From positions 1-61,870 of the IMG/VR virus record IMGVR_UViG_3300042885_000276: a stretch of 61,870 nucleotides of DNA. One strand, given 5' to 3'. Every line of letters begins with the position of its first letter. The first letter of the stretch is position 1. This DNA comes from a virus (lineage: Duplodnaviria; Caudoviricetes). Below, one piece after another: positions 611 to 61,870 of this stretch. The notes under the pieces were generated by a model that saw only the letters and a list, made by a program, of their open reading frames with translations, was not told the origin of the DNA and made no database searches. Position numbers and translations under genes: made by a program.

Positions 611-637
611 ATTCGTTTTCTGTTTTTGGTTATGGTT

Positions 638-6011: not shown

Positions 6012-6031
6012 AACAAACGTAGAACATAAAT

Positions 6032-6322: not shown

Positions 6323-6358
6323 CCAAAATCCACATTGACGCAGGAATTAAACACGGAA

Positions 6359-42117: not shown

Positions 42118-45100
42118 ATGGCTACTTGGCACGAGATTACACGCGATCCAGAATATCAAGAACTTTCCGAACAGGGAAAGGCTTTGGTTAAGCAGGGATT
42201 TTTTGAACGAGAAATATCCTCTGATCCTGAATTTAAAGCGTTCTCGCCACAGACACAAAAGGCTGTTTTTGATGACTTTTGGCAAACTCCAGACGATTCG
42301 GGTCAAGGAATAGTTACCTCCACACTCGGAAGTGCTGCCCGTGGATTCGGTGAAATTGTTCCAGGCACATTGGAAGGTGTTGGCGCTCTGACCGGCATCA
42401 CACCTATCAGCGATCTTGGCGAATCTGCTCGCGAAGGGCTGGAATACATTGCGCCAGTCAATCCAATTTACGAGCAAGGCATTCCTGCCAAAGTGGCAAA
42501 TGTGGCTGGTAATGTGGCTAGCATCATCGGCACAAGCGGCGTTGGTGGACTTGCTGGTAAAGCTCTAGGTGCTGAGCGTGCTGCCGCTGCTGGTTCTGCT
42601 GCTGCTAGGCAAGCTCTCACAAATCAAGCCATTCAAGCTGGTGCTAAATCTGCCCTATACGGCACAGGGTTTGCTCAAGGCGCTGCTGCTAAAGCTGCCG
42701 AAAATGAGCGTCTTGGCATCACTGGCGCTGAAGGGTATTTGAATCTTCTTGGCGGTGGCATATCTGAGCTTGCCCCAGAAATGCTTCCATTCGGCTCTGC
42801 GCTTGAAACGTCTGCCGCCCGTCGCTTGCTTGGAGGAGTTGATGATGCTGCTGGTAGAGTAATTCCAGGTATCCGCATGAGCGCAGCGCAAGAAGCTGCC
42901 GAAGGTGGTTCCACGCAAGTTCTCAGTAATCTCTCAACTCAGCTTACTGCTCCCACTGGCGTTGAAGCTCCAGGTTTGTTTGAGGGCGCTGGTGAAGCTG
43001 CTCTTTGGGAGGGCGTTGGTGGCGCAATGTTTGGCGCGATCAACAAACTTGGCCGAACACCTCCAGAGAGGCAGACTGACATCCAAAAAGCGTTCGTTGC
43101 GGAAGATAATGTGGATGCTGTTGATAAAGTTCCAGATCAGACAGACGACGAAAAGCTCGTCAACATGAACGCTGGCGGCACCACAGTGGTTGATCCACAG
43201 GGGAAAACAGCGGTTATTGCGCCACCAGCGCCAAAGACTCCAAGCCAAGTCATCGCTGAAAATCTGGCAACGGCTGCTGAAAATACATCCAACGATGCCA
43301 GTAAAGCTGTTGCAGCGGCGAGGGCTGTGACGCAACAAGTTACCACAACAAATGAGCCGATCACTCAAGAAGCCTTACCGCCAGAGCCGGAGATTCGACA
43401 GGACATGCAGGAATCACGGCAGTTGCCCTTGGTGCCAGAGCAACCGCTTGCACAAGAACCACAAGCGCCCGTTGAGTTGCCAGTTCCAACTGTTGAGCCT
43501 ACCGTAGAAACGCCAATCCAAAATCCAGCAGAAATTCATCGAAATCGCAATGCAGAATCTGAATCGTATATAGTGAGGGATGCCGAAGGGTTTGCCGACC
43601 GAAAAGCAACCAGGGAGGTGGTTGAGGTGGCTGCTAAAGCTGCGGGAATGACTGTGGATGAATGGGCGGCAGATCAGGCAGCCAAAAACATCAAGGCTAA
43701 TAAAGATTTCTTCGATGCCCTGAACGATGGGGACACTTTGGAGTGGATCGACAACAACGGGAGAAAAGGAACTGGACGCGTAGAAATCGGATTGGATGGA
43801 GAGAAAACGGTGCGCAATACCACCGAAGGTTCTCCCTCAGAAGACTACCAGTACACAAATCGGTCTGGCATTTTCGCCCAAGTTGCGGATTCCTTGAAGA
43901 TCACACCCAAAAGAAAAGAAGCCGCCCCCGCAACCGAAGCCCCCGCCCCCACTGCCGAAACTCTTGGTGTCACAGCGCCACCGGCCCCGACGCTGGAAAC
44001 CCCCGAAGGCGCGGCACGCAACGCCGACATGCTCCGTCAAGCCCAAGCCCGTTTGGCTGGCACCGAGCAAGGCCCGCGCATCGGCTTTCTCCAACCTTCA
44101 GAAGTTGCTCCCGCAACCGAAGCCCCACCAATCACTCCTACCAAGGAGACGCCGACGCCCGCTACCGAAGGCACGGTCATGCCGGGAGGCAGCGCCATGG
44201 AGCGGGATGTGACTAAGCCGGAGCAGATGACGCCGGAGGAACACTTGAACGCTTGGAATCAATTAAACATTGATGCTCAAAAAGCGAGGGAAAAGGCAAA
44301 CGCTGCTAAAGCGAAATTGCTTCCTAAAAATCCTGCGTCGCAAATTAGGCAAATGGAGAAAAACGCCAAACTAGAGCAAGAAGCAATTACTCTAGAAAAT
44401 TTGAGAGATGAATTTCCTCCAACTCCTAGTTTTGCAATTGAGAATGCGGTAAAAGAAGGAAAGCCATTCTCGGTAGATCTCCATAAAGCATCAGGATATG
44501 CCTATATTCCCTCTGGCTACACCCGCCAAGGCGACCTCTACGTATTCCAACCGGGGGTAACTGGCGAATTAGTTCAGGTAGCGCCTTCTGCTGCACAGGC
44601 CGTGACGAAGCCAGCTACAGTCAAATCTACAGAGTTGCGAGTTGGTGATGAAGTGTCGTTCAAGGGAAATACATACCGTGTAAAGAGCAAGTTACTTGAT
44701 GGCAGAGTTCGAGCCGAGTTCACAAATCCAGAAGGCATCGCCAAACTTCCAGCGGGTTCTGTTAACATCACAACCCTACCTCGTAACGTCAATCTCACAC
44801 GCATTGAAAAACCATCTCCCCAAACCACAACGGTAGCCACACCAACAGAAACCGCCGCTCCCTTGGCTAAGGAAGCGGCGGTAGCCAGTGTTGTTCAACA
44901 ACCAGCAGAGGGGTCGATCCCTGCTGTTGAGCAAGAATCTGCTATAACTCCCATAGAGTCAAATGAAAAAGCGGACATTGCAGATGCCGCAATGGCATTC
45001 TTGGAAGAGGATTTGACCGAGAGCAAAAGGCAATGGAGTCCAGAAAAGATCGCTGCTGCAAAAGCCTACTTCGCTAGCGGTGGCAAAGACATGGATGTGC

Positions 45101-48100
45101 TTCGTGCTGCATTTCCCAAACTCGTTGGCTCTCGTCCGATTGTTCAAGCCTATCTCAAGGCTGATAAGGAAGCGTCAGAAGCTCAAGCTAAGCGTGATGC
45201 AGCCGATGCTAAGCTCGCCAAAGAAATCGAGCGTGACGAGAAGGAGCAAGCCAAAGCAGAAGAGGCACAAAGGAAACGTGAAGAGCTAAACATTAAGACG
45301 CTCAACTCGCTCATTCAGAAAACGCGCACGAACGTCGTTCAAGGCACCGTCAAGCCAACCGATGCCAATCAAGCTGTCGCGATTCTCAACAGTTCAGGCG
45401 AGATTCCAAATGTGCTATTCACCTGGATTGGCACCTCAAAGGACTTCCTTGCTGATCCTGCGAATCGCGTTCGTTATCCTGAGACTTGGAAAGCCATCAG
45501 TAGTAATCCGAACATTGAGGGAGCGTCTGATAATGGACAGCCGATTGTCTTCACGGACAACATTGGCGTATCCGATCTTGACCGTAAGCTAGCCAATCTT
45601 CAAGGCACTACGCCAGAAGTGGCGGCAGTTCGTCGCGTCATCCTTCATGAGAACATCCATAAAGGCATATTCTTCTTATCAAAGAAGGAGAAGATGCAGA
45701 TCTTCTCGTTATTGCGCCGGATGTACTCTCCAGAGGAGCTTGATTCGCTTGCTAAGTCCTATAGCAAATACTCTGACTGGCGCACGAATCGAGATAACTA
45801 TTTCAGCTTATTAGAAGAAGCGATGATTCGTGACTTCGACTCAATGGCGGAAATTCCGCGTGATGGCATTTGGGCAGAGTTCATGCAATTTCTGCGTGGC
45901 ATCTGGCAGAAGATCACTGGCAAGACGAGCGAGCCTACGCTAAAGGACTACAAGGATGTTTTCCGCTTGATTCGCAATAGCCTGAAGAACTCGGAGAAGG
46001 CTAATGCTGACATGCTGGTGAATGGTGGTGGCGTGCGGATTGGCATTGCATCCAAAGTCGAATACGATTCCCCAAACGATGCCGCATTCAACAGTGGCGC
46101 TGAAGTAGCTCGCAACACTGATTACGACGAACGCGACAAGGAAGTGCGTTCTACTATTCGTGCAGCATACGATATTGCTCCGAAGACAAATGGCCCATCG
46201 GTGCCGCTAGACGAGCTTTTCAGCATCGTGCAGCAGTCGATGCCTGATCTGACGGAAACCGAGTTCAGCCGTATCTTGCAAGGGCTGTATGAGGACAGTG
46301 GGGCACTGTTGATTGAAGGTGAGGTTGCTCCATCCTATACTTCAGAAGAAGAGGCTAGACATGCCGAACTTGAGGCCAAGTTCAACGCTGGCACCATCAC
46401 GCCAGAAGATACGGCAGAGGCGCAGGCTTTGGTGGATGAACGGGCGAAGGCGGCGGGGTATGATGGCGGTATAGTGTGGCATGGAGATCGTAATGAGGAG
46501 TTTGTAGATAATTACTCTCCATTTACCGAGCCTAAGATTCCATTTTTTACAACACCATCAAAAAAATCCGCTAGTTGGTATGGAAATCCTCGCTCATATT
46601 ACAGCAAAAAAAGTAAAGTTGCTGGAATATCTGATATTTTCAATGCGGCTAACGCGCTTGGTATTACCAAAGATAAATCCGATCCATATTATGAATTTTG
46701 GCCTGAAATAAAAAAATATTCAGAATACGATGGGGTTAACGATAATGATCTTGTTTATGTTCCGTCTATCCGAGAAGAGTTGGTAAAACGTGGATTCACA
46801 AGAGTCCGAGTTTTGGATCAGTTAGAGAATCAAGAAATAACTGCTGATATTTTTATTGATTCACCCTCTCAAATCAAATCCGCAGACCCATTCACAGGAG
46901 TCCCACTCAACCAGCGTTTCGATACTGGTAACGATATTCGCGGCAACATCAACACCTTCACCACCGAAGGCGAACGCGCTGGATCTGTCATCGTTATGCC
47001 ACCGTCTGGATTCCAGACAAGAGCGATGGCGTCAATGATTGATCCTAAAGACGCTGCAACCAAACAGTTCGCGAAGAATATTAAGGACATCAACAGTGGC
47101 ACAGCTAAGGCTGCATTCGACGGCGTGCAGTTTGTTGACTTCGAGCCAGTTGATCACATTGTTAAGCCAAACAAGTCATACGAAAAGATAGCCATTGACT
47201 ATGTAGATGGACTTCTTGGTGAGGGTAAATCCATTGAGGATATTGCCACATCTATTATGACTCCTATGTTCTTCGATAGCATTGGTATCAGCAATGATGT
47301 CAAGGCTCGTCAGGCTCTCACATCAGAAGTTCTTCGTCGCGTCACCGATCTAAACGGCCTATCTAATACTCGTCTAGCATCCAAGCGATTACAGAAGTTG
47401 GAAGACTTAATCAGTGCATTCTGGCAAGGTCTTGGAACTGAGAGCGGTGGAAACCAAGGCCAGCGTGCTTTCATTATCGGAAGCCCTCGTTATTCATGGA
47501 TGTTTTTGAAGGACTCCGTGAAGAAGGAGATGAAGGAACGCCGAAACAACATTCTCACTGTTCAGTTTGGCAATAATAACGCTACCAGCTTCACTCAGAA
47601 CTCGTATGAGAATGCGGATAAGGCTTCCACCATGTCTGCGGATGAGATTGCCAGTGACATTGAAGACTTCAAGATTGATCAAGATTTGCTCGATGGAGAG
47701 GCAACACTAACTGGCAAACTTGCGAAGATGTATGAAGAGTTGAAGGACTTACTTCGTGAGAATGGAATCTTGGCTCGACTTGACGCTCAAGAAAACATCA
47801 CGGCAAAAGCATCTATTTCACCAGCGCGGAGAGAGGAACTTGCTGCTTTGAGCAAGGATGAGCGTGCAAAATTGCGCGACAAAAACAATAAGCGCATTGA
47901 GCAAATCCTGAACACTCTACTTGGAAAAGAAGAGGATGCCGATACGACAGAGAAAAAGACCGTGCGTAAGAAGCGTGAGAAGATGGTCGATGCTGTGAAG
48001 AAGCGCGTTGAGCAGGGTAAACCTATTGAGCCTACTGACTACGTTCCAATCATCACCGAGAATCCACAACGCGATGAGATTATTGATGATGTTTCTAATG

Positions 48101-51100
48101 CTTTGCTACAAGCGGCAAAGAAGCGCGGAGTCAAGCCTTCTCAAAAAACCGCATTGGCAGACTTAGTTGCCAGTATCAAATCTCTGCTCAAGAGGAATAT
48201 AAAAGGTGAAGATTTAAAAGCTGACGAAGCTCCATTGGGTCAATTGCTGGCGAGGACATATCTCGACAACCTCACGGCAACTGAAGCTAAGTTGTTTACT
48301 GAAAGCTGGAATGATGGACGTAAAAAGGTTCGTGCTATGCTTACAGAGATGGGTGTTGAAGGCACTCAACTTGAGGCTGAACTGAATGCCATCATGCCAG
48401 CAACTCCAACGATTGCATACAATCCATCGGCAGTTCGCAAAGCAATCACACGCGCATTGCGTGAAGCCGGTCTTGATGCCAATGACCTTTTGGCTAACAC
48501 GCAGTCAGTTAAATCCGAAATTCTCAAAGTTTGGGATAATGCCGCTGTTGATGCTGGCTTAACACCTTCTGTTTGGCAAGAAGGGCGCAAACTTGCTGAG
48601 AAGTCTATTGATGAGTTTGTTATTGAGCGCAAGGCATCCAAGGAAAAGGCAAAGAAAATTGCCAAAGTGGTATCTGAGCAGGCTAACAATCCAGTTTCAC
48701 TAGCTGATTTCAGCAACTCACTGTCTCAATACAAACTCAATGATGGCAAGGTTAAAGAGCTTTTCGACAAAGCTAAAGTTCTTGCGAATAAGAAGGTTCA
48801 AATTGCCTACGACATGGCTGTTCGAGTCCTTCTTGTATCAGAGAATAATCTAGCTCAAAGCGCATTCTTTAATTCCGCCACCAAGCCAGACACCATCGTT
48901 AAGGCTTTCCGTCAGCAAGTGAGTGATCCAATGAGTCGTCAGGATTTCAAGGATCGCATGGAAGCAATGAAAGTCAGTGGAGAATTGGCCGATAGGCTTT
49001 TCGACAGGGCTGCTCGTGAAAAAGACAATGCACAGTGGAAGCGTGCTCAAGACATGCTTGAAGGGCCAAATGCTCTGCGTAACATTCTTCGCGAGATCAA
49101 TCGCGCACGTCCAGGTAATCAAGCGCCATTGTCTGAGCAGATTCCTTGGCGTCAGCTTCTTTCGCAAAGCTCAAAGACAGTTGAAGAATACCGCCAGCGT
49201 ATCCTTGACGCAATCTCTGCCAACGAATCACTCAAGAACGCAACGCCAGAGCAAAAGGCACGTCTCGCAGAACTATTCACTGAAGCATGGGAAACCAAGC
49301 GTAAACGCATTCTCGACAGCATGCAGGAGCGATTGATCCGTGAGCAAGAGGCAAAAGGTAATCTCAGCAAAAAAGCTGCTAAAGCTCTTCAGGAAAATCG
49401 CATGCGTATAGTTGAGGACATCAACCTTGGCATTTTCGACAACGATGAAATCGCGAAGATCATAGCTGAGAAATTCGGCATCAAGTCCGAGTTCACTGAT
49501 GAAGAGCGCCAGAAAATTGAGTCGCTGATTGCAATCTTGCAGGATGAAAAACTCAACCGCGTAAAGCGCAACAAAGCAGCTTACGAGTTGCTGGAAACGC
49601 TCAGCGCACAGACTGGTATTTCAATTGCTAAGTTGTTGGCAAACTTCTGGGTGTCTAGCGTGCTTTCTGGGATGAACACGGTGTTCTCTATCGGCATGTC
49701 TGTCTTTAGTGGTATGGGCGAGCTCACCACTGCCCTGTCTCGCATCTTTTCTGCTGCATTCTCAAATCCAAAACAGCTTTCGTCTGAAGTTGCAGCGGCA
49801 TTTAAGACTCTGGCAAGAGTAATATCTGCCGTCCCTCGTCAAGCCAACAGAGCTTGGCAATACCTCGTCACAGGAGATCAAGCATTCCTTGATCCATCTA
49901 TGAACGATGCGCTCAAAAACATGGATTACGCATCCATCGGTAAGAATAACCAGCTTGCTGAGCAGATGGCGAAGTCTGATAAGATTCTCGAAAAGAGCAT
50001 GGGTCTTTTCATGCGAACAGTTAGCCGACTACTTACCGCTCTCGATTTGTTTAATAGTGGACTCACCAAAGAAGGCTCGCTTTCTATTGTGTTCCGCCAG
50101 CTTGATCTTGATCCTGTTAAAATCCAAATGCTTGAGAAGAAGTCTGACTTGAAGGCATATAAGGATCAGGTGATTCGAGACTATTTCAACAATGTGCAGC
50201 CAAAAACTCTCAACGAAAAAGCACTCGTTGAATCCTACGCCATGGCTGAAATGATGAAGGCTCTGGATGAAATTGGCAACGTGTCTGAAAACGCTGACCA
50301 AATGGCAATGCAGGGTGCGATGACGCTCGATCCTTCTGGCCTTGGTGGATATGGCTACCGTTTCGTTAAATCAATGATGAAGAGTGCTGAATCTGGCACC
50401 GATAAATTGTTGGAACGAAACCTTCGCAAATGGGATGAGGCAGTCGGTGTAGATGAGAAAGCGGAAGCTGGCGTGAAGTTGGTTTTGTCTTATATCTTCC
50501 AATTCGCTGCCTACAACGCTGCAAACTTGGTAGGTGTCCGATTTGCTCGCTTCGCTGGTAACAAGTTCAACCAGAGTCTTAGCTTCTTGCCTTTAATTGG
50601 CGCTTTGAGGCTGTATGAGGCCGAGTTTGATTCTGACCGCATTCGTGGCAAGGAGGCGTTCACAGATATGATCAAGCGTAACCAACTCACGGGCGTAATT
50701 GCTGCTGTGATTGGATACTATGTTCTTAAAGCTATCGCAGAAGAACCGGATGATGAGAAGCGAGGCGCATTCATCAATGGTGGTTGGAGCAACTTGACCC
50801 CAGAAAAGAAACAGCAAAAGATAGCTTCTGGACAAAAAGAATACACGCTTGGCTTTGGGGATACGGTGATCAATTATGGCAACTGGCCTGGATCTGGCAT
50901 CCTAGCAGCCATCGGTGGATTATCAGATTTGATCCGCTTCTCGCCTGACCAATGGAATGATAAGACTGTTGCCAACAAACTACTGTCTGCAACCACGTCT
51001 GGCGTGTTTTCAGCTATGGAAGTTCCAGCCCTGTCTCAGTTCCAAGAACTGTTTGGTAGTAGCTTGTCCAGCAAAGATCCGAATGAGCAAAAGCTCACAA

Positions 51101-51630
51101 AATTTGCTCGCGTCATAGGAAACTATGTGGGCGGTTTCGTTCCTCGTATCCTCAAAGATATTGATTATATATCCGATCCAAACTTCAGGAAATACGAAAC
51201 GCTGTGGGAGAAAACAGCCTCGCACATCCCTGTTTATCGTCGTTACGAAGGCAAGGAGTACTACGACATCTTGGGCCAGCAAATCCAACGCAATGTGTAT
51301 CCTGGAAGCCGCGAGTTCATGGTGAAGCCAACTGATCCAGCCTATAAGGTTCTCGGCGCTCTCAATTCCCGTGGAATCTGGCTGACTCCTGCTAATGCTG
51401 AACACCGCATGGTTGGCAAGGGCGCTCGTCGTCGCTCCCTCACGCAGGAAGAAGCTGACAACTACAGCCTTGAAACCGGCAAAGGCTATAAGCAGATGCT
51501 TCTGCGATACGGTCAGCGTGCGCTCCAGATGCCCACAGAACGCGCCAAAGCATTCTTGTTGGACAAAGCTGACGAAGTGCGCGACAGGGCGCTCAAGAAG
51601 GTCTATAGGGGCTATCAACCTGCAACGTGA
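42118..51630 (+). CDS. Giant ejection/polyvalent protein with zincin HExxH and ADP-ribosyltransferase-like (ART-PolyVal) domains
   Basis: 3170 aa; G/A-rich N-terminus; ILHENIH at ~45640; AKAAGY..VWHG..FFT..A..YG..QIKSADP..RFD at ~46440-46930. Confidence 0.8.
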   Translation: MATWHEITRDPEYQELSEQGKALVKQGFFEREISSDPEFKAFSPQTQKAVFDDFWQTPDDSGQGIVTSTLGSAARGFGEIVPGTLEGVGALTGITPISDLGESAREGLEYIAPVNPIYEQGIPAKVANVAGNVASIIGTSGVGGLAGKALGAERAAAAGSAAARQALTNQAIQAGAKSALYGTGFAQGAAAKAAENERLGITGAEGYLNLLGGGISELAPEMLPFGSALETSAARRLLGGVDDAAGRVIPGIRMSAAQEAAEGGSTQVLSNLSTQLTAPTGVEAPGLFEGAGEAALWEGVGGAMFGAINKLGRTPPERQTDIQKAFVAEDNVDAVDKVPDQTDDEKLVNMNAGGTTVVDPQGKTAVIAPPAPKTPSQVIAENLATAAENTSNDASKAVAAARAVTQQVTTTNEPITQEALPPEPEIRQDMQESRQLPLVPEQPLAQEPQAPVELPVPTVEPTVETPIQNPAEIHRNRNAESESYIVRDAEGFADRKATREVVEVAAKAAGMTVDEWAADQAAKNIKANKDFFDALNDGDTLEWIDNNGRKGTGRVEIGLDGEKTVRNTTEGSPSEDYQYTNRSGIFAQVADSLKITPKRKEAAPATEAPAPTAETLGVTAPPAPTLETPEGAARNADMLRQAQARLAGTEQGPRIGFLQPSEVAPATEAPPITPTKETPTPATEGTVMPGGSAMERDVTKPEQMTPEEHLNAWNQLNIDAQKAREKANAAKAKLLPKNPASQIRQMEKNAKLEQEAITLENLRDEFPPTPSFAIENAVKEGKPFSVDLHKASGYAYIPSGYTRQGDLYVFQPGVTGELVQVAPSAAQAVTKPATVKSTELRVGDEVSFKGNTYRVKSKLLDGRVRAEFTNPEGIAKLPAGSVNITTLPRNVNLTRIEKPSPQTTTVATPTETAAPLAKEAAVASVVQQPAEGSIPAVEQESAITPIESNEKADIADAAMAFLEEDLTESKRQWSPEKIAAAKAYFASGGKDMDVLRAAFPKLVGSRPIVQAYLKADKEASEAQAKRDAADAKLAKEIERDEKEQAKAEEAQRKREELNIKTLNSLIQKTRTNVVQGTVKPTDANQAVAILNSSGEIPNVLFTWIGTSKDFLADPANRVRYPETWKAISSNPNIEGASDNGQPIVFTDNIGVSDLDRKLANLQGTTPEVAAVRRVILHENIHKGIFFLSKKEKMQIFSLLRRMYSPEELDSLAKSYSKYSDWRTNRDNYFSLLEEAMIRDFDSMAEIPRDGIWAEFMQFLRGIWQKITGKTSEPTLKDYKDVFRLIRNSLKNSEKANADMLVNGGGVRIGIASKVEYDSPNDAAFNSGAEVARNTDYDERDKEVRSTIRAAYDIAPKTNGPSVPLDELFSIVQQSMPDLTETEFSRILQGLYEDSGALLIEGEVAPSYTSEEEARHAELEAKFNAGTITPEDTAEAQALVDERAKAAGYDGGIVWHGDRNEEFVDNYSPFTEPKIPFFTTPSKKSASWYGNPRSYYSKKSKVAGISDIFNAANALGITKDKSDPYYEFWPEIKKYSEYDGVNDNDLVYVPSIREELVKRGFTRVRVLDQLENQEITADIFIDSPSQIKSADPFTGVPLNQRFDTGNDIRGNINTFTTEGERAGSVIVMPPSGFQTRAMASMIDPKDAATKQFAKNIKDINSGTAKAAFDGVQFVDFEPVDHIVKPNKSYEKIAIDYVDGLLGEGKSIEDIATSIMTPMFFDSIGISNDVKARQALTSEVLRRVTDLNGLSNTRLASKRLQKLEDLISAFWQGLGTESGGNQGQRAFIIGSPRYSWMFLKDSVKKEMKERRNNILTVQFGNNNATSFTQNSYENADKASTMSADEIASDIEDFKIDQDLLDGEATLTGKLAKMYEELKDLLRENGILARLDAQENITAKASISPARREELAALSKDERAKLRDKNNKRIEQILNTLLGKEEDADTTEKKTVRKKREKMVDAVKKRVEQGKPIEPTDYVPIITENPQRDEIIDDVSNALLQAAKKRGVKPSQKTALADLVASIKSLLKRNIKGEDLKADEAPLGQLLARTYLDNLTATEAKLFTESWNDGRKKVRAMLTEMGVEGTQLEAELNAIMPATPTIAYNPSAVRKAITRALREAGLDANDLLANTQSVKSEILKVWDNAAVDAGLTPSVWQEGRKLAEKSIDEFVIERKASKEKAKKIAKVVSEQANNPVSLADFSNSLSQYKLNDGKVKELFDKAKVLANKKVQIAYDMAVRVLLVSENNLAQSAFFNSATKPDTIVKAFRQQVSDPMSRQDFKDRMEAMKVSGELADRLFDRAAREKDNAQWKRAQDMLEGPNALRNILREINRARPGNQAPLSEQIPWRQLLSQSSKTVEEYRQRILDAISANESLKNATPEQKARLAELFTEAWETKRKRILDSMQERLIREQEAKGNLSKKAAKALQENRMRIVEDINLGIFDNDEIAKIIAEKFGIKSEFTDEERQKIESLIAILQDEKLNRVKRNKAAYELLETLSAQTGISIAKLLANFWVSSVLSGMNTVFSIGMSVFSGMGELTTALSRIFSAAFSNPKQLSSEVAAAFKTLARVISAVPRQANRAWQYLVTGDQAFLDPSMNDALKNMDYASIGKNNQLAEQMAKSDKILEKSMGLFMRTVSRLLTALDLFNSGLTKEGSLSIVFRQLDLDPVKIQMLEKKSDLKAYKDQVIRDYFNNVQPKTLNEKALVESYAMAEMMKALDEIGNVSENADQMAMQGAMTLDPSGLGGYGYRFVKSMMKSAESGTDKLLERNLRKWDEAVGVDEKAEAGVKLVLSYIFQFAAYNAANLVGVRFARFAGNKFNQSLSFLPLIGALRLYEAEFDSDRIRGKEAFTDMIKRNQLTGVIAAVIGYYVLKAIAEEPDDEKRGAFINGGWSNLTPEKKQQKIASGQKEYTLGFGDTVINYGNWPGSGILAAIGGLSDLIRFSPDQWNDKTVANKLLSATTSGVFSAMEVPALSQFQELFGSSLSSKDPNEQKLTKFARVIGNYVGGFVPRILKDIDYISDPNFRKYETLWEKTASHIPVYRRYEGKEYYDILGQQIQRNVYPGSREFMVKPTDPAYKVLGALNSRGIWLTPANAEHRMVGKGARRRSLTQEEADNYSLETGKGYKQMLLRYGQRALQMPTERAKAFLLDKADEVRDRALKKVYRGYQPAT

Positions 51631-52271
51631 TGCAAGAACTCATTCGCAAGAACACCATCCCAAAGGAATTCAACCACGCGAAGCTGCGTGAGCTATTTCC
51701 AACGGCTATCATCACTGGCGATACATACGGCTTCTTCTACCACGTTGAAGCTACAAACACGGTATTCGTCAGATACGGCTGGCGTGATCTAGCGAAATCC
51801 GTTCAAGAGCACCTGGAGGGAAATGGCATTGAGATTCCAGCGAATCTTGGCCTTATCATGCAGGAGGCATTCTGCCAGCATCGTCCTGATTTATGCGTTG
51901 ATCGCGATCCTGACAGCGAGGCAAAGATTGGAGCATTTCAGATGATGAAGCGGTTCTACAATTCTGCCGTGAAGCCCTACCTTGCTGGACAGCTTGTGGA
52001 TCAAGAGGAGGCTAATCGAAGAGCGGCTATTTGTGCGACCTGCCCGAAGAACACGGACAAAATTGTGGAGTTCTGCGTTAGTTGCTCAACTCGTAGCCTT
52101 GTTGGGCATATCAACCAGTTCTTGACGAGTCGGCATACGCCTAGCGATCCTCTGTTGAAGAACTGCGCCGTGTGCCATTGCCTACTGCCAATGAAAATAT
52201 GGATAAGAAAAGATGATATGGACGAGCCTGAGCTTCGTGAAAAGTGGCCTGAGCACTGTTGGATGAAGTAG
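51627..52271 (+). CDS. Cys-rich hypothetical protein
   Basis: EANRRAAICATCPKN, CVSC, CAVCHC.L..K, CW. Confidence 0.75.
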   Translation: MMQELIRKNTIPKEFNHAKLRELFPTAIITGDTYGFFYHVEATNTVFVRYGWRDLAKSVQEHLEGNGIEIPANLGLIMQEAFCQHRPDLCVDRDPDSEAKIGAFQMMKRFYNSAVKPYLAGQLVDQEEANRRAAICATCPKNTDKIVEFCVSCSTRSLVGHINQFLTSRHTPSDPLLKNCAVCHCLLPMKIWIRKDDMDEPELREKWPEHCWMK

Positions 52272-52559
52272 TTAAAATTCCGCTGGAGTATTCGCTTGAT
52301 TGTCAGTCGGACAAAATTGTAGTTCATCTAGCATATCAGAAGGTTCGGCCTTCCCGTTTGCCATTGCTTCAATCCAGCGTGCAGGGTCAATGGTTGCTGT
52401 ATGCTTCCATCCAACATCCAACATCGCAGATTCAAACTGGCAGATTTCGTCAGCGGATAAGCATTTAATCACTCCGTTAAGCGCATAGACAAAAAGCATC
52501 CGGCCCAACAAGGTTTCTGATGAAACACTGACAACATCGTTCTTGGATTTGGTATTCAT
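52272..52559 (-). CDS. Cassette gene D, hypothetical
   Basis: 95 aa; starts inside attC 52503-52589. Confidence 0.7.
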   Translation of the reverse strand: MNTKSKNDVVSVSSETLLGRMLFVYALNGVIKCLSADEICQFESAMLDVGWKHTATIDPARWIEAMANGKAEPSDMLDELQFCPTDNQANTPAEF

Positions 52560-52589
52560 TCGCGGTGAGTCTACACTTGATTGTTTGGC
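52503..52589 (+). mobile_element. Degenerate attC site
   Basis: GCCCAAC-aaggt...ttgatt-GTTTGGC; L boxes eroded. Confidence 0.55.
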
Positions 52590-52858
52590 ACAAAATAAGA
52601 CACGACTTCTAGCCCGTCATCGCGCCAATCTTGAGCAATGTCTTTTTGATCGGTCACAAACTCCTCGTCTCCTACCGTGCATTTCCACTCTTTTCGCTGA
52701 GACATTAGAGATTCGATCTGTGTCGCAGCATCTGCCATTATTGCAGATATTTCATCCGCGTAAGGTGTCCATCCAGAACGAAGAAGCCGAACGAGGCGCT
52801 GCATGGAATGCCGAGGGGCATCCTGCGCGAGTCCAGGCGTTAATTGGTCGGCATCCAT
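52571..52858 (-). CDS. Cassette gene C, hypothetical
   Basis: 95 aa; N-terminal ...MQRLVR and C-terminal PNNQV are attC-encoded. Confidence 0.7.
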   Translation of the reverse strand: MDADQLTPGLAQDAPRHSMQRLVRLLRSGWTPYADEISAIMADAATQIESLMSQRKEWKCTVGDEEFVTDQKDIAQDWRDDGLEVVSYFVPNNQV

Positions 52859-52875
52859 GAGCTTATGCGTTCTCC
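52786..52875 (+). mobile_element. Canonical integron attC site
   Basis: R'' GCCGAAC-5nt-L'' GCTGCATG-gaATGCCGA..TCGGCATc-L' CATGAGC-6nt-R' GTTCTCC; two extrahelical bases on the R''/L'' arm. Confidence 0.9.
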
Positions 52876-53180
52876 GTTGGACGCATCCGGCGGTTGATCG
52901 CGTTGATTAGACGCAGGTGATTGCTTTGGGATTTATCGACAGCATATCCCAACGTGTCGATCACATGCGTCAGGTTTGCCGCAAGGCGCTGGAACTCTTT
53001 GAGCATCAGCCGGACATCTTCCACATGCACGGCTTCAACCTCGCCACCGTGAACGGGATCAATCAGCCGTTGAGTGATTTCATCCAACTTGAACGGAGAA
53101 CAAAACGATGGACGACGACACCCACCAGTCTGCTGCGGTTGAAAGGGTTTTGGCTTCGGCGTGGATTTCTTCTTGGGCAT
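52863..53180 (-). CDS. Cassette gene B, hypothetical
   Basis: 105 aa; start inside attC 53095-53226, stop inside attC 52786-52875. Confidence 0.7.
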   Translation of the reverse strand: MPKKKSTPKPKPFQPQQTGGCRRPSFCSPFKLDEITQRLIDPVHGGEVEAVHVEDVRLMLKEFQRLAANLTHVIDTLGYAVDKSQSNHLRLINAINRRMRPTENA

Positions 53181-53226
53181 AGCGTGGGGTGGTTAGTGGT
53201 GGGCGCTCGTCATCTTATCGTTCGGC
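53095..53226 (+). mobile_element. Integron attC site
   Basis: R'' GGAGAAC-5nt-L'' GATGGACG..CACCCACCA..TGGTGGGCG..L' CGTCATC-5nt-R' GTTCGGC. Confidence 0.85.
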
Positions 53227-53414
53227 AGCACAATCTTTCTCCAATGCGTTGCGTGATCATATCCACGGTCATACGCACCCTCCCAGATGTCATCGCCATC
53301 AGACCAATCTACATCGCCGTATTTGTTGGCGTCTTCTTTGGTTGGCAGGCGATCATCAACTAGAACCCATGAGAGTTCGAGTAGAATCTTTTGCAGTTCA
53401 TCAATGGTTTTCAT
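53193..53414 (-). CDS. Cassette gene A, DUF551-like small protein
   Basis: WVLVDDRLP...ATHWR; C-terminal LPNDKMT is attC-encoded. Confidence 0.7.
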   Translation of the reverse strand: MKTIDELQKILLELSWVLVDDRLPTKEDANKYGDVDWSDGDDIWEGAYDRGYDHATHWRKIVLPNDKMTSAHH

Positions 53415-53427
53415 ATTCGGTATCTAA

Positions 53428-53997
53428 CTATACGTCCGTTTTTGGTTGAGATGCAAGTGGGATTTTTCTTTTTGGTCTTTCACTCACAGGAACAGGAAAT
53501 GCTGTTTGTGTCTTATTTATAATAAATGAAAGCGTCCCTTTGCTGCTCAATCCAAACTCAATCATGGTTTTATTGAATCCATTCTCTTTATAGTATTCAA
53601 TAATTTTTACATGATCGTGTTTCATGGCATGCCTAGAAGTTGCAAATGCGTGAGCATGTCTAGCTTCAGCAGGTCGATCCATCATGTTTTGTGATGATGT
53701 TCCAGGTATGATATTATCAATGTGATTATTCAATGAGTTTCCATCTAGGTGGCGGCATACGATATTAGGCTGGTAGATTTCATCGCCAAATTTAAACCAA
53801 GCATTGAAGCGGTGAACAAGGCACTTACAACGCTTTGTTTTTGGGCCGAATGAAAACACTCGATAACCATTACTTAGTGATTGACCAACAATCGAACCGT
53901 CTGGTTTTGTGATTGTTTTGCCATCAGGTGTTATGCGGAATCCCATGTTGGCAGCTAATTCCTCATTTCTGTTTGGTGTATAGAATGGTTTTTTCAT
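53428..53997 (-). CDS. HNH endonuclease (HNH_3-type)
   Basis: LVHRF...VCRHLDGNSLNNHIDNI...SQNMMD. Confidence 0.85.
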   Translation of the reverse strand: MKKPFYTPNRNEELAANMGFRITPDGKTITKPDGSIVGQSLSNGYRVFSFGPKTKRCKCLVHRFNAWFKFGDEIYQPNIVCRHLDGNSLNNHIDNIIPGTSSQNMMDRPAEARHAHAFATSRHAMKHDHVKIIEYYKENGFNKTMIEFGLSSKGTLSFIINKTQTAFPVPVSERPKRKIPLASQPKTDV

Positions 53998-53998
53998 A

Positions 53999-55366
53999 TT
54001 ACTCATTTTCTCTTGCTGGATCAAAGCGGAAGAACCTTCCATTGAGCGTTGCCTTAACGATTTTCAGCCTCTCTCCATTTCTATTCTTCTTGATAAAAAG
54101 GTTCCTCTCGTAATTCGGCTCATCCTCTTTCTTTTTCTCCCATGCCTTTGCCTGCTTCTCAAAGGGCTTTTGGATGATTATCAAATTGTCTGAATCTTGC
54201 TCGATGGCTCGCGACTCGCGAACCTTTCCATCCTCATTAAGCTGTGACGGCATGATGATGTGAGCGCCAGTCATTTTAGCACACTGCTTTGCTGTGGCCG
54301 TGATATGGGCAACTTCTCGCTCACGGTTTCCACCATTGGTTTTAGATGTCAGGCAGAGTTGAATGTAATCAATGGAGGCCACTAATTTCTGCCCCTGCTT
54401 TAATCGCTTTGAGCGCCTAGCAATATCTCGGCAGATTTGTTCAATGGTCTTGCCAGCGACATCCACGATGGAAATCGGCCACTTGGATAGACGCATCGTT
54501 TTGACGCCAATGCTTTGATGCTCAACACGAGTCAGCATCCCATGTTTCAAATTACTAGAATCAATACCGGCTTGTGAGCAAATCAACCTTCCAGCCTCTT
54601 CTGTGTCTCGCATCTCGTAGGTGTAGATCACGCCAACATGATCCTGAAGGCATGCGGATTCCACAAATTGACGAGCAAGGCAGCTTTTACCGTCACTGGA
54701 TTCACCAGCGATAACAGTTAGTCGTCCATCTTCCAGACCACCAAGGTATTTATCGAAACCAGCAAACCCAGTGGAGATGCCTGGAATCTTGCCTGGATTG
54801 GCGCAACGCTCCTCAATTCCATTCAAAACGTCTGTTAAAAGCTCTCCAATTTGACGACATGGCAAATCTGCGCTGGAATCATCGTTTACAGCCTCACAGA
54901 CGAGCTTGGTGACGTGCTGGATGGCATCAGTAGCGGAAACACCATCGGCCTCTTGAAACGCCTGCAAATGGGCAATACCAGCAGCCATGGCACCGATCAT
55001 CTGGCGGAACGCAAATTTGTCCCGCAAGATGGTTAGGTAATACTGATAATTTGAAGCAGACGGAATCAGTGTGAAAAGCTCACTGATGAACGCAGGTCCA
55101 CCAACGATAGTCAGCTTATTCGCATTTCTGAGAGCATGAGTGAGTGAGATTTGATCAATCGGCTTACCTGCTGCGAATAGACCGATAATTGTTGTGAGGA
55201 TGATACGATTTGCCTCATGATACATGATCTCGGCATGAGGCGCTTCATCACACAGCGATGGTCGTTGAAGCAAGCATGAGAGGATCGCTTGCTCCGTATC
55301 ATCGTCATACGGAAGCTGTTTGTTGAGAGAGGCTAGAAGATCCTCGGTTGTTGGTGGTTGTGTCAT
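53999..55366 (-). CDS. dnaB: Replicative DNA helicase
   Basis: EQAILSCLL, GISTGF..FD, AGESSDGKS, IDYIQL, SQLN, RESRAIEQDSD, KNRNG. Confidence 0.95.
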   Translation of the reverse strand: MTQPPTTEDLLASLNKQLPYDDDTEQAILSCLLQRPSLCDEAPHAEIMYHEANRIILTTIIGLFAAGKPIDQISLTHALRNANKLTIVGGPAFISELFTLIPSASNYQYYLTILRDKFAFRQMIGAMAAGIAHLQAFQEADGVSATDAIQHVTKLVCEAVNDDSSADLPCRQIGELLTDVLNGIEERCANPGKIPGISTGFAGFDKYLGGLEDGRLTVIAGESSDGKSCLARQFVESACLQDHVGVIYTYEMRDTEEAGRLICSQAGIDSSNLKHGMLTRVEHQSIGVKTMRLSKWPISIVDVAGKTIEQICRDIARRSKRLKQGQKLVASIDYIQLCLTSKTNGGNREREVAHITATAKQCAKMTGAHIIMPSQLNEDGKVRESRAIEQDSDNLIIIQKPFEKQAKAWEKKKEDEPNYERNLFIKKNRNGERLKIVKATLNGRFFRFDPARENE

Positions 55367-56169
55367 TGTTGTTTCTGAGCCTCCACGATAATCTTCGGCC
55401 AATTTTGGCAAAAGTCGAAAATTGTAGATGCCCTAACAAAAGCTGGGCAAAACTTGTCTTTTGATCGCTCCCAGCACCAAGAAACAATGTGGATCAGTTC
55501 TTGGATGTCTTTATCACAGATGCGGAGGAATCCTTGAAGCTGCTTGGCATCCTTTGGCTGGAAATAGTACTTTTCACCAAATGTCTTGATGTAGCCATCT
55601 GAATAGGCGGTGATGAATGGATGGAATCTGGGGTCTGCCGGAAGTGAAGGTCTGCCACGCCTTTTGGGTATTGGCATTGAAGAATTAAGCCTCAAAACCT
55701 CTCCGGCATTTATTGCCGGTAATGGTGTATTCTCTGATGTACTCTCTGTACATATAGTAGTTTGGCTAAAACAGCCTTCCAAGTTTGGCGTTTTTGTGCA
55801 TTCCAGTATGGCGCTTTCCGCCATACTGAGGGAATTAATTTTGGCAATATATGTCAGTTTAGCCTCTAAAGCACTCAAGTTGAGACGATAATAAAGCTGC
55901 GCTGGAATCCCAATTAATTTCTCCTCCCAGCAACCTAAATCCTTGAGATTTCTCCTAGCACTCTCCTGCTCACGTCGAGAGAGACACGTCTCCTCTTCCC
56001 ACTCTGCTTGAGTTTTATAAAACCATCCACCAGGGTCTTTTGTTCGACTGCTCCAGTAAAATGCCTGACTAAGCATCACACCAGCATTGACTGATCCTGC
56101 CATTTTTGCAAAAATTCGGTGGTATGCAATTGGCCTGTCTAAAAGTTGGATAAAAAGAGATTGATTCAT
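55363..56169 (-). CDS. Replication initiator (lambda O-like) containing the origin
   Basis: HTH N-terminus (GWFYKTQAEWEEETCLSRREQESAR), iteron-bearing linker, coupled to dnaB; ATG at 56169. Confidence 0.8.
   Translation of the reverse strand: MNQSLFIQLLDRPIAYHRIFAKMAGSVNAGVMLSQAFYWSSRTKDPGGWFYKTQAEWEEETCLSRREQESARRNLKDLGCWEEKLIGIPAQLYYRLNLSALEAKLTYIAKINSLSMAESAILECTKTPNLEGCFSQTTICTESTSENTPLPAINAGEVLRLNSSMPIPKRRGRPSLPADPRFHPFITAYSDGYIKTFGEKYYFQPKDAKQLQGFLRICDKDIQELIHIVSWCWERSKDKFCPAFVRASTIFDFCQNWPKIIVEAQKQQ
55759..55863. repeat. Putative origin iterons
   Basis: AGT(T/A)TGGC at 55759, 55782, 55805 (23-bp spacing), variants at 55838 and 55856; palindrome CAGTATGGCG-N5-CGCCATACTG at 55804-55828. 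Confidence 0.65.
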
Positions 56170-56171
56170 AA

Positions 56172-56334
56172 AAACAAAAAGGCCGCTCAGGTTGCTCCCC
56201 CGGTTGCGGCCCGGTTTTACCCGGCGAGGAAGCGGCCTGAACGGCCAATGATTGATAAAGCATCTGGTTCTATATGGACGCAACTCCCAAGAACTTCGAC
56301 ACACCAACGCTACTGCATCAAAAAATACAGTCAA
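56172..56334 (-). promoter_or_regulatory. Promoter plus C4/CI-like structured attenuator before the replication genes
   Basis: TTGACT-N16-TAGCGT; GTTGCG site; branched stem 56181-56246 exposing CGCAAC, then U-tract. Confidence 0.5.
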
Positions 56335-56340
56335 CAAAAA

Positions 56341-61593: not shown

Positions 61594-61619
61594 GGTCGTG
61601 CGTTTTTGTGTTATTTTTG

Positions 61620-61870
61620 GTGATTTTATCCAGCCACGCTGGCGTACCCGTCTCGCGCCTCCTGTGCGTACTCGTTAGCGTACCATTCCCAACATTCCGG
61701 CCCGCTCTCAGGCCAACAGCGCCTTGCTTTTTCGTACTCACGTTCCAGATTGCAGACGTGTCTAATCCTCTCGGCTCCACGCAGGTTTCAATCGTTTTCA
61801 TGTTGCTTTTAGTTTGGTTTCTCGGCGCATAATCGCGCCCTCTTGCCATCTTGGCGGCTGGCGATGCCGC
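61620..61870. repeat. Terminal direct repeat, right copy
   Basis: Matches 1-252 with one C missing. Confidence 0.97.

Follow-up and report, generated by a model that had tools for sequence, protein, structure and literature searches.

A probable integron-type cassette array, read from the bottom strand of its attC-like sites, at the end of a phage replication operon

Introduction

Where the replication operon of a lake phage ends, four short genes run across hairpins that are bounded by AAC and GTT triplets, and the question raised by this locus is whether such hairpins can be integron recombination sites and, at the same time, carry the start and stop codons of the genes around them. The integrase of integrons prefers the bottom strand, and promoterless cassettes are thereby kept in an orientation away from intI, which allows their expression from Pc. 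A sequence-only reading of positions 52272-53414 proposed a different layout, in which the genes are inverted relative to attC, genes B, C and D start inside their own sites, each gene finds its stop in the site of its neighbour, and the core triplet is read as a whole codon at the 3' end of every gene and in any of three frames at the 5' end. It listed a gene at 6032 as a fifth example and predicted that homologs would share sequence up to the Asn encoded by the core and differ after it. Here we follow up these claims. The window is the whole stretch of 61,870 nt, which is the full 61.9-kb record IMGVR_UViG_3300042885_000276 (CheckV completeness 100).

Results

The array and its sites

Read directly from the sequence, the minus strand of 52272-53414 carries an anchor gene, A, with cassettes B, C and D behind it, and the operon ahead of them is ordered O-like initiator, DnaB, HNH. 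Substitutions among relatives concentrate at the third codon positions of the minus-strand frames (positions 1/2/3: 5/1/20 in A, 15/6/26 in D and 1/2/10 in C), which identifies the minus strand as the coding strand. The locus is very probably the 3' end of the minus-strand replication operon of the phage, occupied by an integron-type cassette array without integrase, i.e. a CALIN (a cluster of attC sites without an integrase). Its parts are as follows.

53193-53414, minus strand: gene A, 73 aa, conserved anchor at the promoter-proximal end of the array
53099-53222, minus strand: attC-like site of cassette B, 124 nt, from AAC to GTT on the gene strand
52870-53220, minus strand: cassette B, 351 nt, composed of C, the site, GTTCTCC, the gene B body and GGAGAA
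52863-53180, minus strand: gene B ORF, 105 aa, 3' end GAG-AAC-GCA-TAA, stop within the hairpin 52790-52871
52790-52871, minus strand: attC-like site of cassette C, 82 nt
52584-52869, minus strand: cassette C, 286 nt, composed of the site, GTTCGGC, the gene C body and GCCAAA
52571-52858, minus strand: gene C ORF, 95 aa, 3' end CCA-AAC-AAT, stop within 52507-52585
52507-52585, minus strand: attC-like site of cassette D, decayed, 79 nt, AACAA/TTGTT ends kept, no stem
52303-52583, minus strand: cassette D, about 281 nt, with the degenerate core GAC at its end
52272-52559, minus strand: gene D ORF, 95 aa, reading ACT-GAC-AAT across the degenerate core at 52302-52304 (GTC on the plus strand)

The 3' end of gene A reads CCG-AAC-GAT, where AAC (53222-53220) is the codon of Asn65, and its final eight codons and stop (53193-53195) come from the cassette B site, which also contains the ATG of gene B (53180). 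The same arrangement recurs downstream, with the gene B stop TAA (52863-52865) and the gene C ATG (52858) in the cassette C site, and the gene C stop (52571-52573) and the gene D ATG (52559) in the cassette D site. The sequence-only reading was therefore right in placing the starts of B, C and D inside attC-like sites and the stops of A, B and C in the hairpins of their neighbours, and also in the three frames of the inner GTT, which is read as TGT-TCT in B, CTC-GTT-CGG in C and TTG-TTG-GGC in D. Its statement that the core is always one whole codon holds for the AAC of A, B and C and for the degenerate GAC of D, but the word “every” needs an exception for cores read as TAA|C, which make up 22 of 28 phase-1 cases in the wider count given below. 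Gene 6032 (GAG-AAC-GAC) had to be dropped as a fifth example: it differs from relatives by an indel, but the breakpoints lie at ATTGA repeats near 6012 and 6340 and not at the AAC at 6273, and it was rejected as a cassette boundary. Within the array the stops sit 4-40 nt ahead of the next ATG, no Shine-Dalgarno motif was seen by eye before the four ATGs, and no cassette signature was found upstream of gene A.

An AAC/GTT-bounded hairpin with a paired R box is present in the B site (124 nt) and the C site (82 nt), and the D site has the triplets only. The gene strand of the B site folds as DNA at -16.2 kcal/mol (z -2.1, with 5 of 200 shuffles equally good), and its opposite strand gives a z of +0.1. 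The C site consists of a 4-bp R box, a 5x4 internal loop, a 15-bp stem and a 33-nt variable loop, with two single-base bulges (C and T) seven nucleotides apart on the 3' arm, and so has the unpaired central spacer, the extrahelical bases opposite AAC and the variable loop of an attC site. The fold of the D site reaches -4.3 kcal/mol (z +0.7).

The core at each boundary matches the site of its own cassette over that of the neighbour. The inner core of B, GTTCTCC(GT), is the exact complement of the far end of gene B, (AC)GGAGAAC (7/7, or 9/9 with flanks); the far end of cassette C, GCCAAAC, agrees at 6/7 positions with the complement of its inner core, whose heptamer GCCGAAC occupies 52786-52792 on the plus strand; and the far end of cassette D agrees with the expected GCCCAAC at 4/7 positions in the window and at 5/7 in the relative L003. 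The D core is followed by AATCAAG, which resembles the start of a D-type site. Only GCCCAAC (52503-52509, plus strand) fits the strict consensus RYYYAAC / GTTRRRY; GCCGAAC, GGAGAAC, GTTCTCC, GTTTGGC and GTTCGGC deviate from the consensus heptamers at one or more positions, with the AAC/GTT triplets invariant, and the inner cores GTTCTCC, GTTCGGC and GTTGGGC show no strict fit to GTTRRRY.

Judged by the window alone, the pattern could have arisen by chance, and the case rests on the comparison with relatives. An in-frame AAC lies within the last 15 codons of 18 of the 86 greedy ORFs of the window, strict RYYYAAC..GTTRRRY pairs number 7 per strand, which is about the chance level, and the DNA-fold z values range from -2.1 (B site, gene strand) through -1.3 to -1.8 (C site) to +0.7 (D site). 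When AAC..GTT hairpins with bulges on the 3' arm were sought in the window by structure alone, 25 matches were obtained, versus 67 in reversed-sequence controls. The repeat finder returned no repeat family corresponding to the proposed sites in 52100-53600, and in the whole window only the terminal repeat and coding repeats; the shared motifs CGTTCTCCG (2 matches, 0.38 expected) and CTTGATTGT (2 matches, 0.8 expected) are not significant on their own. Genes A-D have no Pfam or PHROG matches, the best ESM Atlas feature scores of genes B and C (0.78 and 0.83) lie under the lead threshold, and every structural row for gene B is flagged “name no family”. A distant DNA search of the phage GenBank collection gave a single 91-nt match and nothing more, and the Rfam scan of the window contained no attC-like family.

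Breakpoints among relatives

In the alignment with five near-identical relatives, which vary in whether B, C or other cassettes are there or have been replaced, every indel edge falls directly after AAC. The aligned joints are A|B, B|C and C|D in the window, A|C in L007, and A|D in L003, L005, L002 and L006; cassette B is missing from all of these five, and the breakpoints are its two AAC triplets. Sequence comparison thus shows breakpoints immediately after the in-frame AAC (Asn) codon and, with them, gain, loss and replacement of whole cassettes.

The gene A homologs, 91-98% identical across loci, bear this out in a wider set. Directly after the AAC of gene A follows a B-type site in the window, a C-type site in L007 and L021, a D-type site in L003, L005, L006 and L002, and other cassettes in L018-20, L023, L025 and L035, so that at least four different sites follow the same gene, each with the matching downstream body. 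Agreement among the homologs extends to residue 65-72, beyond which the sequence depends on the neighbour, and tblastn matches to gene A end at residue 65 (Asn) in seven loci on six contigs (L007; L021 and L072, which share a contig; L022; L023; L025; and L066). The divergence that had been predicted to begin after the Asn is found where it was expected.

Eight array variants were seen between the anchor gene A and a 214-aa gene. The upstream neighbour of the C site and C body is any of four (A, B, X1 or X4), that of the D site and D body is A, C, X2, C'' or X5, and cassette D closes the array in every relative but L022. The phage occurs in a lake series with 24 listed runs. Contigs from lake metagenomes again show the A|D joint, and in one of them (X14) positions 52874-53218 are replaced by 822 other letters, a replacement of cassette B that falls within 3 nt of both cores; uncovered stretches in runs X8, X14, X20 and X24 were left out of the interpretation. 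Gene B has no relative in viral_contigs, so the argument for its mobility draws on its absence from relatives and on this one replacement contig.

A widespread site family

Copies of the C-type site, which share about 90-100% identity along its 82 nt, were found on 43 viral contigs; they represent 34 distinct instances, 33 of them preceded by AAC, and the flanks on both sides are unrelated. The variant of its loop tracks the downstream gene body across different upstream neighbours. Across the family 99.6% of cells are paired, and two pairs show compensatory changes. In run X20 the site forms a high-depth unitig of its own (52790-52872), and it is a repeat node in assembly graphs. In a set of one genome per species for 185,579 species, the site is restricted to three short MAG contigs; these belong to bins of three phyla and are 1.2, 1.8 and 17 kb long, and they were set aside as evidence on the host.

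Behind C-type sites, the 4 nt after the inner GTT are the exact complement of the 4 nt before the terminal AAC in 22 of 29 complete ORFs, 18 of them in phase 0 and 4 with TAA|C. A generic detector found 132 unique pairs of this kind versus 55 in reversed-sequence controls, the excess lying in phase 0 (81 vs 22). Of 84 related sites, 49 have a stem of at least 14 bp, and one-sided bulges lie on the GTT arm in 104 cases and on the AAC arm in 40; at the first bulged base, C is commoner than the canonical G.

Reading phase at the core

The phase rule holds across more than 100 cassettes. At cassette ends the AAC falls in phase 0/1/2 in 87/25/5 cases, counted for ORFs with exact inverted repeats that lie upstream of and co-oriented with intI in 80 loci from an integron-integrase query, a set in which some IMG/VR contigs may be non-viral; three background classes give 12/10/15, 4/1/6 and 10/2/4. 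A related count, which took in the whole plus strand of those 80 loci, has TAA|C in 22 of its 28 phase-1 cases, the stop of the cassette itself lying over the core, and distributes the inner GTT over the phases as 38/23/30. The phase is fixed at R' and free at R'', as the sequence-only reading had it. In 37 structure-defined sites, a reader entering in phase 0 meets a stop inside the site in 36, one in phase 1 in 20 and one in phase 2 in 13.

Integrases and orientation

The whole 61.9-kb record has no tyrosine recombinase, serine recombinase or Y1 transposase, and no match to TIGR02249, the integron integrase profile (cut-off 265), at E up to 0.001 or to PF00589 at E up to 0.1. The array is for this reason classed as a CALIN and not as a complete integron, and any recombination in it must act in trans. 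In related viral contigs, by contrast, bona fide integron integrases adjoin such arrays, as found at L045, L079, L027 and 9 further viral loci; the integrase-bearing contigs number 146. The protein directly downstream of the array and on the same strand scores 207 bits against TIGR02249 in L045 and 260 bits in L079, a complete 59.6-kb phage with terminal repeats, and 10 of 10 further viral proteins in this position score 284-474 bits. The viral IntI fall into at least two clades of a quick tree, none nested within the 20 sampled bacterial IntI; their placement is unsure owing to the long branches of L045 and L079. Integron integrases occur in 60 of 151 sampled genomes, including the unpublished G038, from the order of one of the three MAG bins with the site.

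Nivina et al. (2016, PMC5027507) place the cleaved AAC of R' on the bottom strand, with the extrahelical bases on the arm that faces it. In the set ascertained by integrase, the bulges lie on the GTT arm rather than the AAC arm by 130 to 21 (57 sites vs 4), whereas the same code applied to 20 classical bacterial integrons gives 12 versus 65 (1 site vs 29). In these bacterial controls the ORFs are on the strand opposite intI (7/52/3 vs 3/7/2), GTT precedes the start codon in 42 of 62 and AAC lies at or after the stop in 45 of 62. A top-strand ORF that is followed by its attC and points away from intI is not what the present arrays contain: their ORFs are on the bottom strand, have the site ahead of them and, in relatives, are co-oriented with intI. 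The array is accordingly classed as a variant of integron gene cassettes rather than a standard example of them. Since the hairpin is tied to the downstream gene, the bulges are opposite AAC and intI is downstream on the same strand, the genes are assigned to the bottom strand of attC; the proposed inversion agrees with the linkage of site and downstream gene, with the bulged arm, with the position of intI and with the classical control.

Discussion

Proposed mechanism

Our data indicate a cassette that, on the gene strand, consists of C, an attC-like hairpin, GTTNNNN, the gene body and N'N'N'N'AA, and in which the probable crossover point splits the 5' AAC after its second A. A crossover within the 5' AA|C implies that the gene strand is the attC bottom strand and that the hairpin lies upstream of its own gene. 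The hairpin then supplies the ATG and first codons of this gene as well as the last few codons and the stop of the upstream gene, whatever that gene may be, and with the AA|C core read as an Asn codon or as TAA|C, any neighbour would terminate the gene before it. An integron integrase supplied in trans, by the host or by a co-infecting phage, would catalyse recombination, probably through a circular form of the cassette; transcription may proceed by read-through from the operon promoter and translation by termination-reinitiation, and selection for free shuffling may be what keeps the phase rule.

On a wider scale it seems reasonably plausible, although far from certain, that such arrays represent a class of integrons native to phages and present in viruses of lakes and other environments, with bottom-strand arrays read through toward attI/intI, termination-reinitiation via the hairpins, a convention by which AA|C is an Asn codon with an in-frame stop at the opening of every site, and a role as a platform for shuffling counter-defence genes (methyltransferases, Lar). 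If this is true, cassettes need neither a stop nor a ribosome-binding site of their own, and new cassettes enter at the promoter-distal end, opposite to the classical rule that the first cassette is best expressed. The recombinogenic strand would moreover be the non-template strand, which is left single-stranded by transcription, and expression and shuffling could in this way be coupled.

Alternative explanations

The hairpins could instead be conserved intergenic linkers or regulatory stem-loops, like the promoter/stem-loop (PeSL) modules of T4-type phages, exchanged by homologous recombination and without a site-specific recombinase. The C-type site, about 90-100% identical over 82 nt in 43 contigs and a repeat node in assembly graphs, offers enough homology for such exchange, and the window has no recombinase. 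We nevertheless consider this unlikely, because it leaves unexplained the own-end complementarity (22/29, and an excess of about 60 phase-0 pairs), the one geometry with one-arm bulges across unrelated site families and the integron integrases beside such arrays, and because the B-, C- and D-type sites differ in sequence and yet join gene A at the same AAC. It is very unlikely that the hairpins act mainly on RNA (by coupling translation, as RNase sites or through weak termination), with AAC/GTT incidental and the gene content due to ordinary phage mosaicism, since own-end complementarity, integrase adjacency and the exact AA|C breakpoints would have no place in such a scheme. The starts in or beside stems and the stops 4-40 nt before the next ATG could couple translation, and the compensatory changes fit RNA as well as single-stranded DNA, so a role on RNA may coexist with recombination, but it does not replace it.

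A classical orientation, with crossover at the GTT end, the hairpin belonging to the upstream gene and the genes merely overlapping the sites of their neighbours, would produce the same linear pattern GTTNNNN..ORF..N'N'N'N'AAC, and the inverted-repeat test alone therefore cannot discriminate between the two. What decides is that gene A joins at least four sites with matching downstream bodies and diverges right after AAC, and that intI is downstream of the array on the same strand, whereas the ORFs of the control are on the strand opposite intI; we regard the classical orientation as most improbable. Almost no weight can be given to chance, i.e. to AAC/GTT triplets and short complementarities chosen after the fact in tightly packed phage genes. 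The weak in-window figures (18/86 ORFs, 7 core pairs per strand, z from -2.1 to +0.7) speak for it; the comparative breakpoints, the 43 contigs with the site, the phase counts of 87/25/5 against background and the mirror image in the classical control speak against it.

Comparison with known systems

An array of bottom-strand genes of this kind has much in common with classical integrons and CALINs: imperfect AAC/GTT hairpins with an unpaired central spacer, extrahelical bases and a variable loop, a crossover placed at AA|C, a core complementary to the far end of its own cassette, and integron integrases beside the arrays of relatives, the window being a cluster without integrase. It differs from them in having its ORFs on the attC bottom strand, co-oriented with intI and read toward attI/intI from a promoter at the far end, in having the site upstream of its own gene, with the start of that gene and the stop of the neighbour, and in the one fixed phase of the core. 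The 20 sampled bacterial chromosomal integrons, in contrast, have top-strand ORFs between GTT and AAC that diverge from intI, mostly with TAA inside R''.

Sedentary chromosomal integrons are known for homogeneous attC families, such as the Vibrio cholerae repeats. The C-type family is similar to these repeats as one near-identical site on many unrelated cassettes, but is spread over different phage genomes and not within one chromosome. Inversions are known as well: inverted toxin-antitoxin cassettes in Vibrio arrays are exceptions with promoters of their own, and in inverted-integrase integrons of the Treponema type it is intI that is reversed, upstream of cassettes in the normal orientation. 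In both, as here, the usual map is altered by the reversal of an ORF or of intI; here, however, the geometry of intI and attC is the usual one and a whole promoterless ORF array is on the other strand.

On either side of small variable genes of T4-type phages, Arbiol et al. in 2010 reportedly described PeSL modules, which have an early promoter and recombine by homology. The present hairpins resemble PeSLs as short conserved stem-loops between small ORFan genes in hyperplastic phage regions, for which modular shuffling is proposed, and are unlike them in the AAC/GTT cores, the cassette-specific terminal complementarity, the one-sided bulges and the associated integron integrase.

Clusters of attC in phages (17 CALINs) were published in 2023 (Qi et al., Front Microbiol, PMC9892861). 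According to the main text of that article, which used an attC x attI suicide-conjugation assay, IntI1 recombines phage attC sites other than the present ones, and two virulent-phage arrays are oriented “as most typical of bacterial arrays”; a term search of the same main text finds no mention of start codons or of an opposite orientation, and stop codon once, in an unrelated context. No description of the inverted, phase-locked layout was found in the literature searched. DNA methyltransferases are a shared cargo, with 20/119 here and 5 methyltransferases in PMC9892861, and the cargo of the cassette family leans to counter-defence genes, mainly DNA methyltransferases (20/119).

Taken together, such arrays would break the integron rule wholesale, through co-orientation with intI, translation signals in the recombination site and a phase convention that makes cassettes interchangeable. 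If confirmed, recombination sites can evolve under constraints of DNA structure and coding at once, and such arrays give phages a compact means of exchanging accessory genes, those for anti-restriction among them. Integron finders that expect top-strand ORFs would then mis-describe such arrays, gene callers would give cassette proteins C-termini that depend on the neighbour, and the direction of gene flow between phage and bacterial integrons would become testable.

Two minor observations lie outside the array itself. The sole match of the Rfam scan of the window was a hammerhead ribozyme, located elsewhere. On the plus strand, GTTGGAT at 52258-52264 marks the position where L003 and L002 have an extra HNH-like gene; it was considered as a possible true end of cassette D, although an insertion of a homing endonuclease between short direct repeats is the simpler explanation.

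The cassette array and its sites

The record is a complete viral genome of 61,870 nt (CheckV completeness 100). A terminal direct repeat of 252 nt (1-252 and 61619-61870; two exact blocks with a one-base offset near position 127) fits a full-length genome of about 61.6 kb, terminally redundant or circularly permuted, the record class nevertheless being 'linear'. The anchor gene A and the cassette genes B, C and D form the 3' end of an operon that is convergent with the late genes.

Features around the array, with the attC-like sites read from AAC to GTT on the gene strand
Ends at 52271, plus strand: late gene block, the last genes of which encode a 3170-aa protein and then a 214-aa Cys-rich protein
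42118-51630, plus strand: 3170-aa protein, a single ORF closing the late gene block
51627-52271, plus strand: 214-aa Cys-rich protein, with only a weak PHROG match, to a function-unknown family
52507-52585, minus strand: site before D
52790-52871, minus strand: site before C
53099-53222, minus strand: site before B
3' end of the operon, minus strand: genes A-D, four small ORFs
53428-54042, minus strand: HNH endonuclease, between DnaB and gene A
53999-55411, minus strand: DnaB, same operon
55363-56337, minus strand: O-like initiator, same operon

None of A, B, C and D gave a Pfam or PHROG match. Their coding strand is the minus strand, on which the ORFs tile and have ATG starts, and substitutions among relatives at codon positions 1/2/3 (5/1/20 in A, 15/6/26 in D and 1/2/10 in C) are in excess at the third position. 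All codon strings that the sequence-only reading quoted for A-D were found in the sequence, and its claim that the sites carry start and stop codons is confirmed, the three proposed sites holding the ATG of each of B, C and D and the stop of each of A, B and C. Taken alone, however, this pattern is weak evidence, since an in-frame AAC occurs in the last 15 codons of 18 of the 86 ORFs in the window, strict core pairs are at chance level there, the fold z-scores of the sites are modest (-2.1 before B, about -1.3 to -1.8 before C and +0.7 before D), and no recombinase was found in a search of the whole record. On such evidence it was very probable that A-D were merely ordinary, tightly packed phage genes, a view that was changed by the array differences among relatives. 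The site before D no longer has a hairpin, and D itself, with a degenerate far core, appears to be a fixed terminal cassette.

A gene at 6032-6322 (plus strand) had been proposed as a fifth example. It is variable among relatives, being present in the window and in genome G006 and absent in G003, G008 and G009, but the indel (6012-6340) is bounded by ATTGA repeats close to positions 6012 and 6340, and not by the AAC at 6273. These repeats include the stop of the upstream gene, and the indel differs in kind from those of the cassettes.

Array variants among relatives

Among 17 related viral loci gathered with a DnaB query, relatives with DnaB about 99.6-100% identical differ in the array, A being joined to D in L003, L005, L006 and L002, and to C in L007. 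Every breakpoint among these relatives lies directly 3' of AAC, and the L007 sequence after the AAC of A is letter for letter the window sequence after the AAC of B. With further relatives added, the stretch from the conserved anchor A to the 214-aa gene was found in eight array forms. In seven loci on six contigs, matches to A end at residue 65, an Asn, and homologs are thus alike up to the Asn and divergent after it, as had been anticipated.

The window stretch is also present in 24 lake-water metagenome runs, and contigs of four runs were aligned on it. One contig of run X24 joins 52569 to 53221 (the A-to-D form) and another covers the C-to-D junction, while a contig of X14 has 822 other letters replacing 52874-53218 (cassette B). 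In X20 the C-type site, the hairpin preceding gene C (52790-52872), is a unitig of its own at about 30x versus 3-6x in the flanks.

Many loci match only the first 23-26 codons of gene C. The unit common to them is an 82-nt element, exactly AAC to GTT. Its two flanks are unrelated between loci, and no fewer than four unrelated gene bodies follow it. A pattern search for the C-type site gave 43 viral contigs with 34 distinct instances, all but one preceded by AAC; in genomes representing 185,579 species, one per species, only three MAG contigs had it (1.2, 1.8 and 17 kb). In its fold, a 5x4 internal loop separates the 4-bp R box from a 15-bp stem, the 3' arm of which has two single-base bulges, and a variable loop caps the stem. 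In the alignment 99.6% of cells pair, with changes on both sides at two pairs, a figure that adds little alone because the search pattern preset most stem positions.

Reading phase and the integrase

For each C-type instance, the four nucleotides following the inner GTT (the 3' end of the site) were taken, and their reverse complement, followed by AAC, was sought. Of the 29 complete ORFs that start in a site, 22 have it at their end, 18 with AAC as a whole Asn codon (phase 0) and four with the stop of the cassette overlapping the core (TAA|C). A generic detector applied to 721 kb of loci returned 132 ORFs of this kind, compared with 55 in reversed-sequence controls; it is AAC phase 0 that is enriched (81 versus 22), with the inner GTT in all three phases.

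An alignment of three integrases (L045, L079 and L027) retrieved 146 viral contigs, of which the best 80 were analysed; all ten sampled proteins exceed the curated integron-integrase cut-off (284-474 bits). In these 80, cassette-type ORFs cluster upstream of the integrase gene intI and in the same orientation, where their AAC phases 0/1/2 are 87/25/5, as compared with 12/10/15, 4/1/6 and 10/2/4 elsewhere. Of the 61 loci with 1.5 kb or more of upstream sequence, 35 contain one or more such ORFs; nine occur in a single locus. On the whole plus strand of the integrase loci the AAC phases are 91/28/11, TAA|C accounting for 22 of the 28 phase-1 cases, and the inner GTT phases 38/23/30. The predicted fixed phase at the AAC end and free phase at the GTT end are both seen, while the stronger statement that every gene crosses the core in one frame holds as a phase-0 rule that needs the TAA|C exception. 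Among 37 sites chosen by structure only (twelve of C-type), reading AAC as a codon gives an internal stop in 36, and the other two phases give one in 20 and 13. Sites most often open with AAC-NNN-stop.

Downstream of the cassette array at L026:4510-4836 (the same as L039:9712-10038) there are only two short integron-integrase gene fragments. These fragments suggest that the integrase has decayed in some lineages, and the lineage of the window may be another.

Orientation of the genes

The linear pattern cannot separate an inverted from a classical cassette, because both models place GTTNNNN and N'N'N'N'AAC around the same body. Three independent lines of evidence do separate them, namely linkage, bulge asymmetry and the integrase. 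B-, C- and D-type sites each accompany their downstream gene behind differing upstream genes, and gene A has at least four different sites 3' of it among the loci. On the attC bottom strand, as described in Nivina et al. 2016 (PMC5027507), the cleaved AAC is in R' and the extrahelical bases are on the opposite arm; on the gene strand of the phage sites the bulges are opposite the 5' AAC in 104 versus 40 cases, and in 130 versus 21 in a second set. In L045, L079 and L027 an integron integrase gene directly follows the array in the same orientation; with the gene strand taken as the bottom strand, this is where intI and attI normally lie. The positive control comprised 20 bacterial integrons, examined on their attI side and all from one order (IntI was above cut-off in 60 of its 151 sampled genomes, a count that includes the unpublished G038, which supplied none of the integrons). 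In these integrons GTT precedes the start codon and AAC lies at or after the stop, control ORFs on the strand opposite intI count 7/52/3 versus 3/7/2, and the same code places bulges on the AAC arm in 65 versus 12 cases. The method sees both orientations, and the phage genes are therefore inverted relative to attC, the opposite of the classical picture, as the sequence-only reading had held.

Clusters of attC sites in phages are already known: Qi et al. 2023 (PMC9892861) report 17 CALINs and a few integrons, methyltransferase cargo, and activity of IntI1 on phage attC sites, and a term search of their main text gave no mention of start codons or opposite orientation. No description of an inverted, phase-locked layout was found in the full-text literature searched, most subscription journals being outside its scope.

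Cargo and proposed mechanism

Of 119 non-redundant cassette ORFs, 20 encode DNA methyltransferases (N6_N4_Mtase 11, C-5 4, MT-A70 4, Dam 1), two RNA ligases, one an RNA-repair HAD domain and one a Lar restriction-alleviation protein; most of the remainder had no Pfam match at 1e-5.

The anatomy, the site-gene linkage, the breakpoints and the phase rule were observed, as was an integrase beside the array in relatives. Beyond this, we propose that exchange would be catalysed by an integrase supplied in trans to this integrase-less phage, as attC x attC or attC x attI, with the cassette passing through a putative circular intermediate. The array would be transcribed by read-through and the cassette genes probably translated by termination-reinitiation, since no Shine-Dalgarno motif was seen by eye before the four ATGs. 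Selection for interchangeability may keep the phase rule.

Other features of the genome and its relatives

The HNH gene (53428-54042, minus strand) is missing in several relatives, the conserved sequence of which begins only about 52 nt before the ATG of A, and in L003 (8500-9326) and L002 a second HNH-like gene, some 830 nt long and with short direct repeats at its flanks, separates D from the 214-aa gene. These genes look like homing-endonuclease insertions beside the array. In three relatives DnaB is interrupted after about codon 31-35 by some 450-470 nt (L007:3000-3470; L009 and L010:5422-5867), which may represent an intron, an intein or a mobile insertion. A 96-nt direct repeat of 74% identity (38773-38868 and 39065-39160) in two adjacent plus-strand genes is probably a duplicated protein domain. 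In the early region, 637-699 (minus strand) matches the Rfam type II hammerhead ribozyme with 38.5 bits against a gathering threshold of 37 (E 2.7e-4).
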